DNA from: Eledone cirrhosa
Lineage: Eukaryota
Length of the DNA stretch: 64,000 nt
NCBI GenBank assembly: GCA_964016885.1
Contig: OZ024740.1
Span: 115,382,001 to 115,446,000, forward strand
Reading direction: 5' to 3'
Shown piece after piece: positions 1 to 48,850 of this stretch (position 1 is its first letter; every line of letters starts with the position of its first letter). Below the pieces are notes generated by a model that made no database searches, was not told the DNA's origin, and saw only the letters and a list, made by a program, of their open reading frames with translations. A program made the position numbers and the translations under genes.

Positions 1-390
1 TCGATATGCAAATTGGGCTACTCAGCCGTTAATATGCATAAGGTAAGTATATACGTTCAACAATCTGGCAGGAAGGTATACGTTGCTGACCATAGCTAAT
101 AAGCTTGAAACTAGTACAGCGTTCCTTTGTCAGTGTTGAACAAACGAGCAACGATGGTTGCTAGACACTACGGCTTAATATGGGATGTTTGTTTACAAAC
201 ACACCGAGCATTATAATAAATGTTCGGTGAATTCATACGTACATATATATATGTGTGCATGTATGTATATATATATACATACTACTGTACGTCTGTATAC
301 ATATATGTATGTACGTATACATACTTATATTTAAGTAACAGCCGTACTAAGAGTGGGAAATGAAATTTCGTTTAATTTTTTCCGTTTAAT
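1..390 (+). mobile_element. Partial non-autonomous hammerhead-bearing repeat (family B, ~435-bp monomer)
   Basis: Near-identical to 43676-44018 and, inverted, to 42817-43220. Ends in a (TA)n tract. Contains a hammerhead motif at 80-122 with the core mutated to CTGACCA. Confidence 0.8.
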
Positions 391-690
391 ATAAATATAT
401 ATATATATATATATATTTATATATATATATATATATATATATATTTATTTATATATATATATATATATATATATTTATATATATATATATATATATATTT
501 ATTTATATATATATATATATATATATATTTATATATATATATATTTATTTATATATATATATATATATATATATATATATATATATATTTATATATATAT
601 ATATATATTTATATATATATATATATATATATATATATATATATATATATATATATATATATATATATTTATATACATATATATATATTT
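391..690. repeat. (TA)n microsatellite, representative of dozens of similar tracts in the window
   Basis: Direct inspection; interrupted by TTTA variants. Confidence 0.99.
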
Positions 691-1766
691 ATCTTTGGTA
701 TAGTATTGTGTGTTAGATTTGCCTACCACAATGTTCGATTTGTCAAGCTATTTAAACGTATGTTATTACTCTAAGGCTCCTCTAACTTATCGAGTGCTTT
801 GCTAACTCATCATTTCATATAAGTAGGCCGAATTTACTTGCAAACCGCCAGAGATTCGATTTTACTAAATTTCCAATTATATATATATTTCCAATTATAT
901 ATAAATTTCCAATTATATATAAATTTCCAATATATATATATATATATATATATATATAAATATATATATATATAAATATATATATATATATATATATATA
1001 TATATATATATATATATATATATATATATATATATACAAAATTATAAGAAACGAAAGAAGCTGTGTGGTTACTGTAAACAAAGTTTAAGATGGTAGTATG
1101 GACGAAACAAGAGGAGAAAAGAAAAGAAGAAAAGAAATCCTTCATCAACTGTAAAACCGAGATCGAGATGTTTCGGCACTTAATATAGGACATCTATAAG
1201 CGATCAGCGGTGCGCCCAAGGCCTTTTCTCAATCAAAAGGCCAGGAGGGAAAGAAAAGAAAAGGGAAGGAAAAAGAAGAAAAAAGTGGAAAGGTAGTGAG
1301 GAGAGAGAAAGAAAGAGCAAAAACAGGTAAACAGACCAGATACTGGGGGGGGGGGGGGCACAGGACAATGGAACAGATATAACAGATATATATACGAGAT
1401 TTGTCCAAAACGTAAGGGTACTGATGTTATATCTGATTATATAGTAGACGTACGTGAATTTACAAGTTATTTCCTTCAAAAGTAAGACAATTGGGAAATT
1501 ACACAGAGATTCCAACGTTTTTCTATTGATCATAGTACCTAATCTCCTACAAATGTCCTTTCTGACTCACTGGACCCTTTGTCGTTGAAACTCGTATGTA
1601 CGGGCAGCGAAGATCATAACCAACACACTTATATACATCAATAAGGTTCTGTGTTAACATGTCGTACATAGGAAATTAGTACCTTTACTCTTGGGTCAAA
1701 CTTTGTATATATGTATACGTTATATATATAATATATAGATACATTATATATATATATATATATATG

Positions 1767-2326
1767 TGATGGCTGCCCCCTCGTTATCAGGTATGGCCAT
1801 TGCATGATATACCATTATTAATAATTATTAATTAATTCTATCGTGCAATGCCTGTGCGTGAAGATATTTTTTAAGGTGAGGAAAGACTGTGCACTGAGCC
1901 AATCCCAATCTCTGAGCGACAATAGCTATAACCCGAAAAGAAGAAATGATCAACATCATCGGTAACTACTGAGCCGCAGGTATTTATGTTATCCCAGTTT
2001 CCTGAGTTGCCTTCTCCTAGAAGAATGCCCTGAAAAAGGCGAGGGATCCTTCACTCCCAGTGGTTTAACCACGCGATCGGGTGTCCAGCCCGACTATTTC
2101 TATGTCCCCGCGCATATACATACACGTGCACCCATGTATATACACATATACATACATATGTACATGCGTATATACATATTTACACAATTTTGGATGGCCG
2201 TTGACTCTTATGAGTTCTTCCACCCTTTGTGAGGTTTTGTTCTTTGTCCTGCAGGGTGTCCAAAATCACCCTCCTCACCAAGTAAACTTGGTGGGGTTTC
2301 CGGTTTAGTCGCCGACGACCCGACCA
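1767..2326 (-). mobile_element. Non-autonomous element derived from an RTE-like 5' UTR
   Basis: Homologous to 31563-32190 (-) and 56527-56810 (+). Shares ggtcgggtcgtcggcgactaaac and the ctaggagaagg(a/c)aact motif typical of RTE 5' UTRs. Interrupted by a microsatellite. Confidence 0.55.
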
Positions 2327-2460
2327 TATATATATACACACACACATATATGTATACATTATATATACATATATATGTACGTACATATATGTATACAGAT
2401 TATATATGCACATATAGATACATATGTATACATTATATATACATACATACATATATATAT

Positions 2461-45252: not shown

Positions 45253-45459
45253 ATATAAATATATATATATATATAACGAAGGAAATGTGGTAAGGAACCA
45301 GGTGGACACATTTCCTTCGTTATCTAGCTCCTATTCCCGTAGTAGAGCACTTTCCGACCCTACCACGCCGTATCCAGACTTTTCCGCTAAGCTCAATTCA
45401 TTTCACCCGCACCACGGGGTCTTACCGGTTCCTATTATATATATATATTTATATGAAAT

Positions 45460-46400
45460 ATATGAAATATAAGAATCAAAGAACTGTTCAAAACATTATT
45501 GTGCTTACAGCTGTTTCCTCCAAACCGAGGTTTGGATTCTTCGGAGCAATTTATTAATGCATGGACAGTTATAAAGTTAACTAAAGAACACCAGACTACG
45601 ATCTCTAACTGGATTGTCGTGGATTATGTGAAAGGCATATAATCGAAATATACACTCCCTTGACCATGAAAATGCCGAAGTACATGAATTACTTGACATC
45701 CCTGCGTTGTGCATCTCCAATACTTATAACACTTTTAATGCTTGCACTATCTTTAATACTTATAATATTTCTCCACACACAGACTACATCAATCATATAA
45801 AGACTTTGCCACCAGATCTACCAACCTAACACTCTTATTTACCTACCTAAGTGCCTCTACCACACATATCTCTCTGCCACACTATATAAACAAGACGCAC
45901 ATGCGTGCCACACATATAACATTTGCACTATATAACCACTTATCTTCATGTTGTACTTTAACCTATATCTTTGATTTTTGATTGTACCTATTAATATAAA
46001 TGTAATCTCGAAGTGTGTACTGCCACTCTAAATTTTGTAATGAATGTTGACCCACAATGTTTGAATATGTATCAATGTTTGAATATGTATTGGTATGTCT
46101 CTCGGCTGAAAAGGAGGTCATATAACTGTCCATGCATTAATAAATTGCTCCGAAGAATCCAAACCTCGGTTTGGAGGAAACAGCTGTAAGCACAATAATG
46201 TTTTGAACAGTTCTTTGATTCTTATATTTCATATAACTGCTCTGTAAATCATCTGATGTTTTTACATTGAGCTACTTAACTTACTGGTAATAAGGTAGTA
46301 ATACATTACTGCCTACCACTATTTAGGGTGTGTGTAAAATACTTACAACTGCTTAAGGTTTTGTGTTTACATAACCATAAATAGTATAACTAATACTATA
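45460..46400 (+). mobile_element. Family H element: inverted arms with a hammerhead (46146-46192 +, 45502-45548 -)
   Basis: 45460-45573 is inverted relative to 46121-46233. tgct-CCGAAGA-a tccaaacc tc ggtttgga g-GAAA-cagctg-TA-agca. Confidence 0.8.
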
Positions 46401-47170
46401 TATTTATATATATATATATATATATATATATATATATATAGAGAGAGAGAGAGAGAGAGAGAGAGAGAGAGAGAGAGAGAGAGAGAGAGCGAACGAGAGG
46501 AATTGTAAAACAAAAATCAGATACCAAGTCAAAAAACTTACATGAATGGTAAAATTTTGGTTATTTCCGAATCAGATAGCAAGTAAAAAGAACTTACTTA
46601 AATATGGTAAAATGCCGAGATTTCAATATTCTCTACAGCTGTTTCATGTGTGAAGAAAAATGGTAAATAGAAGGAATCATGCATGAAACACCCAAACCTC
46701 AGTCACCATAGCTTCAAAAGATGATTCGAACGCACATGTTGAAGAACGTAATAATATGACCAATGGGCCAACAGGAATGATAGAAATAGCAGTGCTTTTG
46801 GTCTAAAAATAAAGAGCTCCACACATATAAACATATGTACATATATATACATTTATGAATATAAACATATACACATAAACATATACACATAAGTACATAT
46901 ATACATAAATATATACATATACACATATATACATATATACATAAATACATATATACATAAATACATAAATATATACATATACACATACATACATAAATAT
47001 ATATATACACATAAATATGCACATACACATAAATATATACTTACACATAAATCTATACATACACAAATGTTATACATACACATGGATATATACAGACACA
47101 TAAATGTATACAAACACATAGATGTATACATTCACATGAATGTATACATACACATAAATGTATACATACA

Positions 47171-48850
47171 CAGTATATATATATATATATATTAAATTGT
47201 TAAACAATATTCAATGATTATGTCAAAGAATGAGTTTTACAGTAGATTGGAAGCACTCAACGTTTAAAAAAAAACAATTTTCTGGAGTTATTAATATTAA
47301 AATATAAGTATTAATAAAATAGATGTTCTTTTGATCAATTACATTTTATTATACATATTTCCGATGTACAACAGTACGTCCTCATCAGACAAAATATAAT
47401 GATAGATGACATACCCTGAGATGTTAAATGGTTAAGATTTAATCAATGTAAGTACCATGTAGACCAATACATCATGCGTAGCGAAACCTTGGACTTAGAA
47501 CCGGCAGGCTCGTCTATCGCGAAAGCGTTCAACCCCTGAAACTAGAAGATCGAACGGACCACATCCGGCAACCACTGGCTATTAGATCCACAGGTACATC
47601 TCCCAGAGAGTCCACGCAGATAATAGTGAACCCCAGGTGATCTATGAACGTTTAAACAAGACCAGCTGCGCCTGGAGCTATGCAGATGACTGCATACGCA
47701 TGATGGATATCGTGCCTGGAGCTATGCAGGGGACTGCATAGGCAGAATGGATATCGCGCCCACACGGTCACCAGTACTGTTCATCCTGTTATATTTTTGT
47801 AATAATTTTATGATAATTTTGTAATAATTTTGCGATAATTTTATGATAATTCGATAATTTTGTAATGATTTTGTGGTAATTTTGTGATGATTTGATAATT
47901 TTGTAATGATTTTGTGGTAATTTTGTAATAATTTTGTAATAATTTTTAATCCTGTATCAATAATTTTAGAATGTTTTTTTGTGATAATACATGGTTAGAT
48001 CACTGAAGCTACCTTATACCTTCTTAAAGATACATTTTATGATTATTGTCTTTTTGCTTATGTATTTTCTTAGTTACCACTTTCTTTAATCTTGCCCAAC
48101 TTGATAAACTCCTTGAATTGCTCCCTAATTAAATTACTTAAATTGCTTAGATTATTGTATCTATTATGCCTAGGTTGTATCTGTTGAAGCAGCCCTTTGA
48201 AAGTTCCTCGGATATCCCAAATACCGTAATTTTTAATTTTTAACTTTTAATGTATAATTTTCCTCAATTCGTTTTTATATTTATCCTTAGAGGCTCTGTA
48301 AAATTTTAATTCTTCGAAGGGTCTCTCGGAAGAAGTTCCTATTAGAAATATTAAAGGGGCCTTTTCTGAGAGATTTATGGAAGGCTCTCTGAATTAACCT
48401 CTAATTGATTAGTTTTTTTCAACCTAGTTTTCAATTCAGTTTTCTGAATTTTGTAAACGTGATCTCGGGGGAAGAAGGTTTTTTTCTTTGGGAAAAAAAA
48501 TTTTTTCTCTAGAAGAAATTTCATAGGAACTTTATATATTTTTTAGGGAAACTTTATATTTTTATTTTCTTATTTTATTAGCCTCTTAATTTTCTTCTAG
48601 ACTAATAGGTTTATTGGAGCCTGTAAGCTTTATGCACTCATTGAGGGATTTTCTAAGGTGCTTCTGCGGGACCCCAAGTCTTTTAGTTTAATGTTGATGC
48701 GTAAATTATATATTTTTGTCTAATTTTTAAACTTCAATCCCTGACCCCGACAACTAATATAAAAGAGCCCCCCTTAAAGCGGAGTTGCTGATGTATACAA
48801 CAATTTCAAACTGCTAGTCTTGAGTGATACGTTGATGTAAACAATGATCT
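47171..48850 (-). mobile_element. Longer family G copy: hammerhead (47343-47395) plus heavily decayed PLE-like body
   Basis: attttgt-CTGATGA...GAAA-tatgta-TA-ataaaat. Minus-strand LRYLGYPRNF (~48200-48230) resembles the PLE thumb GYP motif. The rest has many stops. Confidence 0.5.

Follow-up and report, generated by a model that had tools for sequence, protein, structure and literature searches.

Most islands of sequence between the (TA)n tracts of a 64-kb stretch of the Eledone cirrhosa genome in which we recognized hammerhead ribozyme motifs are, in our firm but not final judgment, insertions by (TA)n-preferring Penelope-like retrotransposons (PLEs). On the same reading, the non-coding monomers among them are retrozymes of the kind without long terminal repeats (non-LTR) that use the PLE machinery, and their multimers probably self-cleave. 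The stretch (contig OZ024740.1 of assembly GCA_964016885.1, positions 115,382,001 to 115,446,000; G000:C1:115382001-115446000) belongs to an assembly of 3.0 Gb and is called the window below. An initial annotation, made from the letters of the window, had proposed about 13 (TA)n-embedded families of mini-elements with type I hammerheads, mobilized by PLEs.

Hammerhead motifs in the window and across the genome

The window (35% GC, 127 (TA)6+ tracts) was searched with type I hammerhead descriptors comprising the core, three stems and a NUH cleavage site, using dinucleotide shuffles in 500-nt blocks as a control. The strict descriptor with a canonical core gave 10 matches, compared to none in each of 40 shuffled windows. 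When U3:A8 and long stems were allowed, 19 matches were obtained versus 2 over 40 shuffles, and with one core mismatch allowed, 25 versus 5 over 15 shuffles. The union of the descriptors at a score of at least 11 yielded 28 type I hammerheads against a mean of 0.2 per shuffle (30 shuffles), and homology added 12 degenerate copies, in agreement with the excess over shuffled sequence implied by the initial annotation. The descriptor matches fall into 14 clusters, with family K (39315) as an additional one, which bears out the claim of many families. The features of the window are as follows, with families designated by letters, pLTR standing for pseudo-LTR, and fold-backs and head-to-head arrays given as unstranded.

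1-388, plus strand: partial array of family A (427-nt non-coding monomer); hammerhead 80-122 with a private G8C
5101-5427, unstranded: head-to-head fold-back (5326); hammerhead 5325-5383 (plus) with weakened stem II, decayed partner (minus) at about 5145-5205; architecture like that of Hydra family H
6595-6638, minus strand: hammerhead of a pLTR fragment, a relative of family C (Neptune/Nematis-like) that covaries with C
7098-7456, unstranded: family E fold-back with a 63-nt tail on one arm; U3:A8 hammerheads 7236-7270 (minus) and 7348-7383 (plus)
7605-8361, minus strand: family D copy, one unit and an inverted piece; U3:A8 hammerhead 7674-7761
8677-11188, unstranded: family D head-to-head array of 591-nt monomers; hammerheads at 8917 and 9508 (minus) and at 9844, 10435 and 11026 (plus)
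After 9926, 10517 and 11108, plus strand: predicted cuts in the family D array
11820-11962, unstranded: family B (Hydra) pLTR fold-back; hammerhead 11842-11894 (minus)
26625-26806, plus strand: family F 3' end; hammerhead 26675-26725 with a private G12U, U.U at 10.1/11.1 and a long stem III
29334-30996, minus strand: 5'-truncated autonomous Hydra-clade PLE of family B with a U4A core
Parts of this family B element: inverted pLTR hammerhead 30926-30976 (plus), endonuclease C-terminus 30423-30674, 3' untranslated region, pLTR hammerhead 29443-29493 (minus), 85-nt tail
31134-31441, minus strand: family G piece (non-coding monomer of about 560 nt); hammerhead 31321-31402 with C.A at 10.1/11.1 and a palindromic stem III
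35664-38590, plus strand: decayed autonomous Neptune/Nematis-like PLE of family C; reverse transcriptase (RT), linker and GIY-YIG 36274-38143, pLTR hammerhead 38345-38387, tail
35822-35864, minus strand: hammerhead of the inverted 5' copy of the family C element, within 35664-38590
38664-39104, plus strand: family J piece (non-coding unit of about 400-445 nt); hammerhead 38935-38984 with a private A6G, the family core being canonical
39137-39383, unstranded: family K fold-back with a 61-nt tail, Hydra-clade pLTR; both hammerheads decayed
39428-40449, minus strand: family L, a non-coding tandem with 707-nt units, of which 1.4 are present; hammerhead 40310-40436 with a long (96-nt) stem II, decayed copy at about 39600-39730
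42220-42805, unstranded: family C pLTR fold-back; hammerheads 42417-42459 (minus) and 42613-42655 (plus)
42819-44019, unstranded: family A head-to-head array; hammerhead 43090-43132 (minus), predicted cut 43096; decayed ones at about 43500 (minus) and 43765 (plus)
44066-44475, minus strand: G2, related to family G at 66% identity; hammerhead 44118-44195, whose stem II shows compensatory changes
45071-45231, minus strand: family H 3' end, third autonomous Hydra-clade PLE; hammerhead 45119-45165
45459-46235, plus strand: family I with a U4C core; inverted 5' pLTR hammerhead 45502-45548 (minus), 3' end hammerhead 46146-46192 (plus)
47193-47459, minus strand: family H 3' end with tail; hammerhead 47338-47400
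48868-48914, plus strand: family M U3:A8 hammerhead, 48 nt before a TA tract and outside the range of the initial annotation
52289-52405, minus strand: decayed family B pLTR piece, found by homology
55548-55755, minus strand: family E arm and tail with a decayed hammerhead, found by homology

The type I core C3UGANG8A...GAAA...UH (or U3:A8) was found with three stems and an open stem I, and 19 matches have an unmutated core; families B (U4A) and I (U4C) represent core variants of the type I hammerhead. Among the 15 positions named initially, 12 pass the descriptor (43090, 5326, 7348, 9844, 26675, 30926, 31321, 44118, 38345, 38935, 47343 and 46146), including the hard U3:A8 cases at 7348 and 9844, which had been read correctly. 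Position 45119 matches the strict canonical-core descriptor only, whereas the copies at 39315 and 39603 are decayed, although other members of their families fold. The inner stem III is self-complementary in 33 of the 43 clusters with a short stem III, compared to 6.9 expected; the palindromic stem III noted initially supports the motifs, since the descriptor did not demand this feature.

The stems are also kept by compensatory changes. In seven Neptune-like pLTR hammerheads, several of which were found via homology of their open reading frames (ORFs), 97.6% of the cells are paired and 4 of the 12 pairs changed on both sides, compared to 19-53% pairing in slid controls; none of 500 shuffles was as high, in a test that is inflated by the kinship of the sequences. 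Stem II of G and G2 shows 2 compensatory pairs out of 6, from two sequences only and with 109 of 500 shuffles as high. The signal is weak for D versus its 77-83% variant (2 both-sided changes in 112 pairs) and for A versus A2 (5 of 86 pairs), and neither counts as proof. The excess over shuffles, the palindromic stem III and the other stem comparisons confirm the motifs as genuine type I hammerheads by sequence and predicted folding, with cleavage being predicted. The library of hammerhead elements covers at least 30% of only 36 of the 71 window islands of 60-1000 nt.

To assess scale, we sampled 39 stretches of 10 kb at round coordinates picked blind to content, 18 from the four largest contigs and 21 from others (390 kb, 0.013% of the genome). 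At a score of at least 12, the sample contained 87 motifs, compared to 0-1 in each of five shuffle runs, and one extra descriptor setting raised this number to 90, of which 19 belong to a single 468-nt array. Counting this array once gives 72 motifs, or 1.85 per 10 kb, which extrapolates to approximately 0.55 million genome-wide (bootstrap 0.36-0.77 million), while counting all motifs gives 0.67 million (0.39-1.0 million). The sample thus suggests that the Eledone genome carries about half a million hammerhead motifs. Fifteen of the 39 stretches had no motif, and decayed or variant cores escape the descriptor. Across all examined loci, including fetched copies, 423 matches form 54 clusters, 33 of them within the random sample; a few singletons among the clusters are probably false or split. 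The candidate counts of the genome searches (230-3520) are lower bounds rather than copy numbers.

The association with (TA)n holds well beyond the window. A (TA)6+ tract lies within 250 nt of 79 of the 87 sample motifs (background 0.33), whereas other dinucleotide repeats are near only 15 of the 87 (background 0.16), and TA lies on the 3' side in 38 of 45 independent clusters (background 0.20, p 6e-20). By class, 25 of the 87 motifs belong to tandem families (19 of them to the one array), 15 to autonomous families, and 47 have no assignment. TA tracts constitute 5.3% of the sample, PLE ORF sequence 12.6 kb, and hammerhead elements roughly 10-14%, an approximate figure given that the library was derived partly from the same sample. 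The single large array (L056, G000:C22:12000001-12010000) is satellite-like and consists of 19 units of 468 nt with identical hammerheads, related to family A.

Autonomous families and non-coding monomers

Four of the named families (B, K, H and C) are the 3' pLTRs of autonomous PLEs, present mostly as truncated copies, and represent new members of known PLE clades. Their short islands are therefore just 5'-truncated or inverted copies of autonomous elements. By motif diagnostics, B (30926), K (39315) and H (45119/47343) appear to be three Hydra-clade PLEs. Family B has 24 further loci that are 97-99% identical, variably 5'-truncated, and continue into the ORF; at 12 of 14 ORF ends at B loci the hammerhead follows. 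One locus (L227) has the layout inverted 5' pLTR, open 713-aa frame with RWR, DKT, YRDD and YIG, and 3' pLTR, with TA on both sides, complete in one of four extended copies. Family B thus combines a single ORF, an RT followed by a C-terminal GIY-YIG-type endonuclease (EN), RWK-like and DKT motifs, a CxCx5C linker, no CCHH, and CxxC and CxH around the catalytic E/N. In longer copies, the K and H hammerheads run into two further Hydra-type ORFs, which places both families among autonomous PLEs instead of mini-elements, although only decayed RT-thumb and EN remnants are left of them. The linker and EN cysteines of B, K and H agree with the Hydra clade as delineated in section 11 of Craig 2021 (PMC8557442), and all three have the hammerhead in the pLTR and insert in (TA)n.

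Family C is the pLTR of a decayed RT-linker-GIY-YIG element that lies in three frames within the window (36274-38143; Pfam RVT_1, E 9e-5, and GIY-YIG, E 8e-5), with the hammerhead 205 nt after the ORF. Its CX4CxxC linker and two cysteines between the GIY-YIG motifs are of the Neptune/Nematis type. The closest database relative of the window RT is an Octopus vulgaris protein (72% identity), the next being at most 55% identical.

In contrast to these autonomous ends, the "mini" part of the initial description stands for families A, D, G, J and L, which have non-coding monomers of 427 (A), 591 (D), 559 (G), 707 (L) and about 400-445 nt (J). They occur as more-than-unit, head-to-tail copies with one hammerhead per unit, and a locus contains from 1 to 19 units. 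For A, D and G, head-to-tail repeats were observed in which each unit has its own type I hammerhead. For L, which was seen only in the window, there are two units, one with a decayed hammerhead, and for J only a more-than-unit permutation was observed, with no hammerhead-to-hammerhead tandem. In the monomers of A, D, G and L, no Met-ORF exceeds 79 aa and the GC content is 0.34-0.42. A PLE ORF immediately upstream of the match was seen in 0 of 65 cases for A, 0 of 52 for D and 1 of 58 for G. Folded as circles, 6 of 6 monomers gave z scores of -6.2 to -9.8 (8-12 shuffles each), whereas eight other PLE 3' regions ranged from +2.0 to -3.2 and 14 random windows from +5.4 to -3.4. These monomers are non-coding, a few hundred nt long, below 45-50% GC and stably folded. 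The family A hammerhead has a 6-bp stem I, a bulge, a further helix and a stem II hexaloop, and aligns to HH9, while those of D, G and L carry long stem II inserts. By their sequences, A, D, G, J and L fit the animal non-LTR retrozymes, with their RNAs and circles being predicted.

The top 40 candidates each of D and G, a set biased to young copies, match the query along its length with 100% identity and come from many dispersed loci, and in several D, G and A arrays private variants are common to the units on both arms. A proposed link of D to a Neptune-like ORF at one locus (L049) was rejected, because D had inserted there separately, into a TA tract. The D monomer (window 10597-11188) was also found at ~99% identity in sequencing runs X1, X2, X5 and X6 under three organism labels, at low depth under two of them, where relatives, diet or environmental DNA, and horizontal spread are indistinguishable. 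No RNA data set was among those found to contain the D monomer, and of the four runs, made up of contigs of undefined kind, two gave one wrap-around contig of 620-621 nt, as expected of any tandem repeat.

Families E (7348), F (26675), I (46146) and M (48868) and the 5326 fold-back have the same ends as the other families, and neither an ORF nor a tandem was seen in the copies examined. The U4C core is present in 3 of 3 family I copies, and a genome search with this family gave no matches, a result that carries no weight. In family E, the two arms of a copy have subfamily variants in common (11 both-arm versus 22 one-arm differences), the tail can sit on one arm or the other, and the hairpin has A or T as its central letter regardless of which arm bears the tail, as would be expected if both arms were copied anew from one template. 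A family E relative at L095:1240-1330 and L112:445-530 has the U3:A8 core with GCAA for GAAA in both and was missed by the descriptor. A Hydra ORF preceding a 5326-type hammerhead (L159) was not accepted as its partner, as TA separates them.

Insertion footprint, mechanism and alternatives

At least three Hydra-clade and several Neptune/Nematis-like families have a type I hammerhead 20-250 nt inside the 3' pLTR. Insertions end at one of two fixed 3' ends per family, show variable 5' truncation, are often head-to-head (a partner was found for 22 of 68 sampled motifs), and adjoin TA, and the same footprint is seen in the non-coding monomers and in all families with enough copies, coding or not. 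The modal hammerhead-to-TA distances (nt) are about 18/109 for B, 70/188 for G, 70/234 for D, 72/137 for E, 40/140 for H and 16/85 for F, whereas the 3' ends of family A are blurred by internal TA runs. The two fixed ends, truncation, inversion and (TA)n flanks uphold the initial attribution to PLEs.

A mechanism consistent with this footprint can be drawn from the published biochemistry. In vitro, AT-rich DNA is cleaved on both strands by a PLE protein, which initiates cDNA synthesis at two positions within the RNA; these positions delimit the genomic "tail" (Frangieh 2024, PMC11167929). Nearly every Hydra family targets (TA)n and has a hammerhead (Craig 2021, PMC8557442). The PLE RT-GIY-YIG protein would nick both strands of a TA tract and prime cDNA synthesis at two sites within the RNA, both downstream of the hammerhead. 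Each target strand would give rise to one cDNA, and the two cDNAs would meet head-to-head and leave fold-backs with a tail on one arm. Even very short truncated insertions would keep the hammerhead because copying starts just 3' of it, and 3' priming would explain the density of hammerheads without any host function. The non-coding monomers would exploit this machinery. Their multimeric transcripts probably self-cleave as dimers, as suggested by the palindromic stem III, into monomers or circles, while the template of a multi-unit insertion would have to span the cleavage site and so be an uncleaved multimer or a circle. The array-private variants of D, G and A fit one template, and rolling-circle copying of monomers is possible.

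Cleavage itself may be dispensable for insertion, because hammerhead mutants insert normally in vitro (Frangieh 2024, PMC11167929), one of nine dimers was cleaved in Li 2026 (bioRxiv 10.64898/2026.07.22.740005), and family B thrives with U4A. An alternative that we regard as a serious but less favored one, and that is compatible with PLE mobilization, is that the hammerheads are mostly passive passengers with little or no cleavage, uncleaved RNA being inserted and the motif being retained for a structural or protein-binding role or owing to its position next to the priming sites. In addition to the in vitro mutants, the lack of RNA-seq reads ending at the site (PMC11167929) and the dimer result, Naiad PLEs without hammerheads (PMC8557442), the fixed U4A of the active family B, the U4C of family I, and the frequency of non-paired 10.1/11.1 point in this direction. 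However, core and stems are conserved over ~54 clusters with compensatory changes, the palindromic stem III fits dimer cleavage, and U3:A8, U10.1.U11.1 and U4C have been described as tolerated natural variants (PMC4209133, PMC3088659).

Several observations weigh against the motifs themselves or against PLE-moved, self-cleaving elements as the common explanation. Three window motifs have core mutations private to them within their own families: 26675 (G12U), 38935 (A6G) and 80 (G8C). Lone motifs mostly lacked significant folding compared to shuffles (z -2.6 to +0.3, 10 motifs). No Rfam match in the window reached the gathering threshold: the best 150 of 383 matches of a whole-window E-value scan were hairpin-type matches on TA/CA repeats and fold-backs, none at gathering score, while a local scan of 43030-43250 returned Hammerhead_HH9 (E 8e-4). 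Family B, young and abundant (8 motifs in the sample, hence tens of thousands genome-wide), has the core C3-A4-G5 in 47 of 47 descriptor matches, with a long non-palindromic stem III; this U4A change should reduce activity. No homology between monomers and autonomous pLTRs was found among the 14 sequences compared, G-G2 and one low-complexity B-C match aside. In family A, divergence within arrays equals that between arrays (4.4-4.6%), giving no support for single-template copying. Finally, L and J could prove autonomous too, because K and H did once longer copies were fetched, and the same applies to E, F, I, M and 5326, as K and H first looked like mini-elements.

The last point leads to the possibility, in our view unlikely, that all families are truncated ends of autonomous PLEs and that the tandem monomers, rather than being mobile RNAs, arose by local duplication of pLTRs in the manner of satellites. 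Besides K and H, this explanation has the 19-unit array on its side, and Li 2026 proposed local amplification from pLTRs. It does not account well for D and G, whose 100%-identical arrays are dispersed, always end at the same registers, share private variants between inverted arms, are without upstream ORFs (except 1 of 58 for G), and fold far better than autonomous ends. We also consider it improbable that the elements, rather than targeting TA tracts, give rise to them, either by addition at priming or by growth from AT-rich ends. The abundance of tracts in the sample and their location at element ends would be expected in that case. However, TA also flanks the variable 5' break of non-inverted copies (L205, L216), only 130 of 829 sampled tracts adjoin a library match, (TA)n preference has been described for Hydra, Neptune and Naiad PLEs (PMC8557442), and AT-rich cleavage has been shown for a PLE endonuclease (PMC11167929). 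That the fold-backs are DNA transposons resembling miniature inverted-repeat transposable elements (MITEs) is hardly credible: the near-fixed palindromic centers of the top E and K matches are a query bias, since a tail-anchored query gave an inverted partner in only 8 of 40 K matches, centers vary, the tail is on one arm only, longer copies run into PLE ORFs, and no symmetric terminal inverted repeats with fixed ends around an invariant interior were found, which largely refutes this idea for K, although E may be a fixed palindromic mini-element.

Comparison with known systems and significance

The concept of PLE-moved, (TA)n-targeted hammerhead elements is largely published: (TA)n targeting by Hydra and Neptune PLEs with hammerheads is covered by Craig 2021 (PMC8557442), and minimal hammerheads and retrozymes by PMC4209133, PMC7229834 and bioRxiv 10.64898/2026.07.22.740005. 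Families B, K and H share with the Hydra clade, as described there, a single ORF below 3 kb, the RT, linker and EN diagnostics given above (no CCHH, CxxC and CxH), the pLTR hammerhead, (TA)n insertion, and a tandem/inverted structure with a tail. That clade is described as having few families and tails of 30-40 nt, whereas here family B alone accounts for tens of thousands of motifs, tails are 60-100 nt, and the family B core is U4A with a long non-palindromic stem III. Family C shares with the Neptune/Nematis PLEs (PMC4209133) the CX2-5CxxC linker and the GIY-YIG with internal cysteines. The minimal hammerheads of those elements, like those here, also have an extra base after A9, U3:A8 covariation and a short palindromic stem III, and occur as opposite-strand pairs 100-700 bp apart, mostly as truncated single copies of many families per genome, all of which Cervera 2014 (PMC4209133) already reports. 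Unlike them, many of our motifs have 50-105-nt stem II inserts and mismatched 10.1/11.1. Perreault 2011 (PMC3088659) covers U10.1.U11.1 and U4C, and the term U4A has no occurrence in its accessible text.

Monomer families A, D, G, J and L share with the non-LTR retrozymes of PMC7229834 and bioRxiv 10.64898/2026.07.22.740005 a non-coding head-to-tail organization with one type I hammerhead each, GC of 34-42%, a stable predicted circle fold and an array range from dimers to long arrays, and the U.U at the base of stem II recalls axolotl Amex2. The monomers of 427-707 nt are above the 150-450 nt of Cervera (PMC7229834) and within the 51-972 nt of Li. They differ in lying in (TA)n with PLE two-site tails and head-to-head inversions, which the accessible text of neither study describes, and the link of retrozymes to PLEs rests there on co-occurrence and pLTR homology. 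For the retrozymes here, circular RNA and cleavage are predicted. Chlamys MRC1 (PMC8557442) is likewise a non-autonomous PLE derivative with pLTRs, head-to-tail multicopy structure and microsatellite targets. It is algal, targets (CA)n/(C)n, has no canonical hammerheads and shares its 3' ends with an autonomous partner, whereas a comparison of 14 sequences revealed no 3' homology of this kind here.

Reported hammerhead counts are about 2,000+1,300 for Schistosoma, 4,000 for coelacanth and 9,000 for Xenopus (PMC4209133), over 6,000 for coral, 126,247 canonical motifs for the axolotl at 28 Gb (PMC7229834) and 235 by Rfam for the giant squid (PMC6962438). If the sample estimate holds, the Eledone count would be approximately four- to five-fold that of the axolotl and 40-50 times denser, with descriptors differing between studies. 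Novelty lies in this scale, far above the counts reported for other animals, in the footprint evidence for PLE-moved retrozymes, and in a U4A core fixed in a young autonomous family; the retrozymes are a longer, TA-targeted variant with a PLE footprint, and the surprise is mainly quantitative. We tentatively propose, with more doubt than conviction, that this is the densest hammerhead population described (about 0.5-0.7 million, ~200 per Mb, roughly a tenth of the DNA being in elements that bear hammerheads), the product of a Hydra-clade and Neptune-like burst, and that the young monomers D and G are circular RNAs copied rolling-circle into (TA)n by PLE enzymes from the same two internal priming sites. 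We found no description of a hammerhead or retrozyme population in octopods, nor of (TA)n-targeted animal retrozymes with PLE tails; both statements are provisional, as supplements, Repbase and subscription papers lay outside the search and cephalopod families may appear in Craig S1/S2 or in the Cervera tables. The word ribozyme is not in the main text of the 2026 curated Octopus vulgaris repeat annotation (PMC13282606).

Other repeats lie beside these elements. A 1.7-kb local duplication (window 5589-7305 and 53981-55755, 90-96% identity, 48 kb apart) contains a short interspersed element (SINE), a Neptune-like pLTR, TA tracts and one arm of family E. The 63-nt family E tail (5520-5582) marks the exact start of its first copy, and the duplication possibly arose by 3' transduction or template jumping of a PLE RT. 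A frequent tail-only or heavily truncated family lies beside TA at 28720-28803, 33393-33546, 49519-49579, 55165-55215 and 6760-6813. Short fold-back islands between TA with no hammerhead match (6861-7069, 28888-29034, 55279-55491, 40524-40613, 44475-44590 and 45194-45254) are probably inverted PLE ends that stop short of the ribozyme. A SINE-like abundant repeat, often beside (TAA)n, occurs at 3931-4080, 6154-6261, 11456-11650, 25713-25837, 56170-56363 and 62887-62986 and presumably resembles octopus SINEs. Remnants of long interspersed elements are found at 2766-3278 (zf-RVT, E 9e-4), 12704-13297 (an APE-like stretch by eye, with no Pfam match) and 27200-27700 (RVT_1, E 4e-5). A MITE-like 600-nt element with imperfect inverted repeats and no hammerhead match spans 24823-25423, with a partial second copy at 52466-52742, and a Tc1/mariner-like transposase remnant recognized by eye lies near family H pieces at G000:C2:222489700-222493000 (L223).

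The role of PLE hammerheads (Craig 2021, PMC8557442; Frangieh 2024, PMC11167929) and the mobilization of animal retrozymes (Li 2026, bioRxiv 10.64898/2026.07.22.740005) are both stated as open in these sources. The Eledone genome offers near-identical young retrozyme arrays with the PLE two-site tail together with an intact ORF of a TA-targeting Hydra PLE, and both questions become directly assayable because arrays, ORF and dozens of core variants (U3:A8, U4A, U4C, mismatched 10.1/11.1) coexist. If the tentative proposal of rolling-circle copying by PLE enzymes is true, it would provide direct evidence on the mobilizer of animal retrozymes, and the U4A core of family B would be a natural test of whether cleavage matters. 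For the octopod itself, these elements may account for part of the patchwork around its abundant TA tracts.

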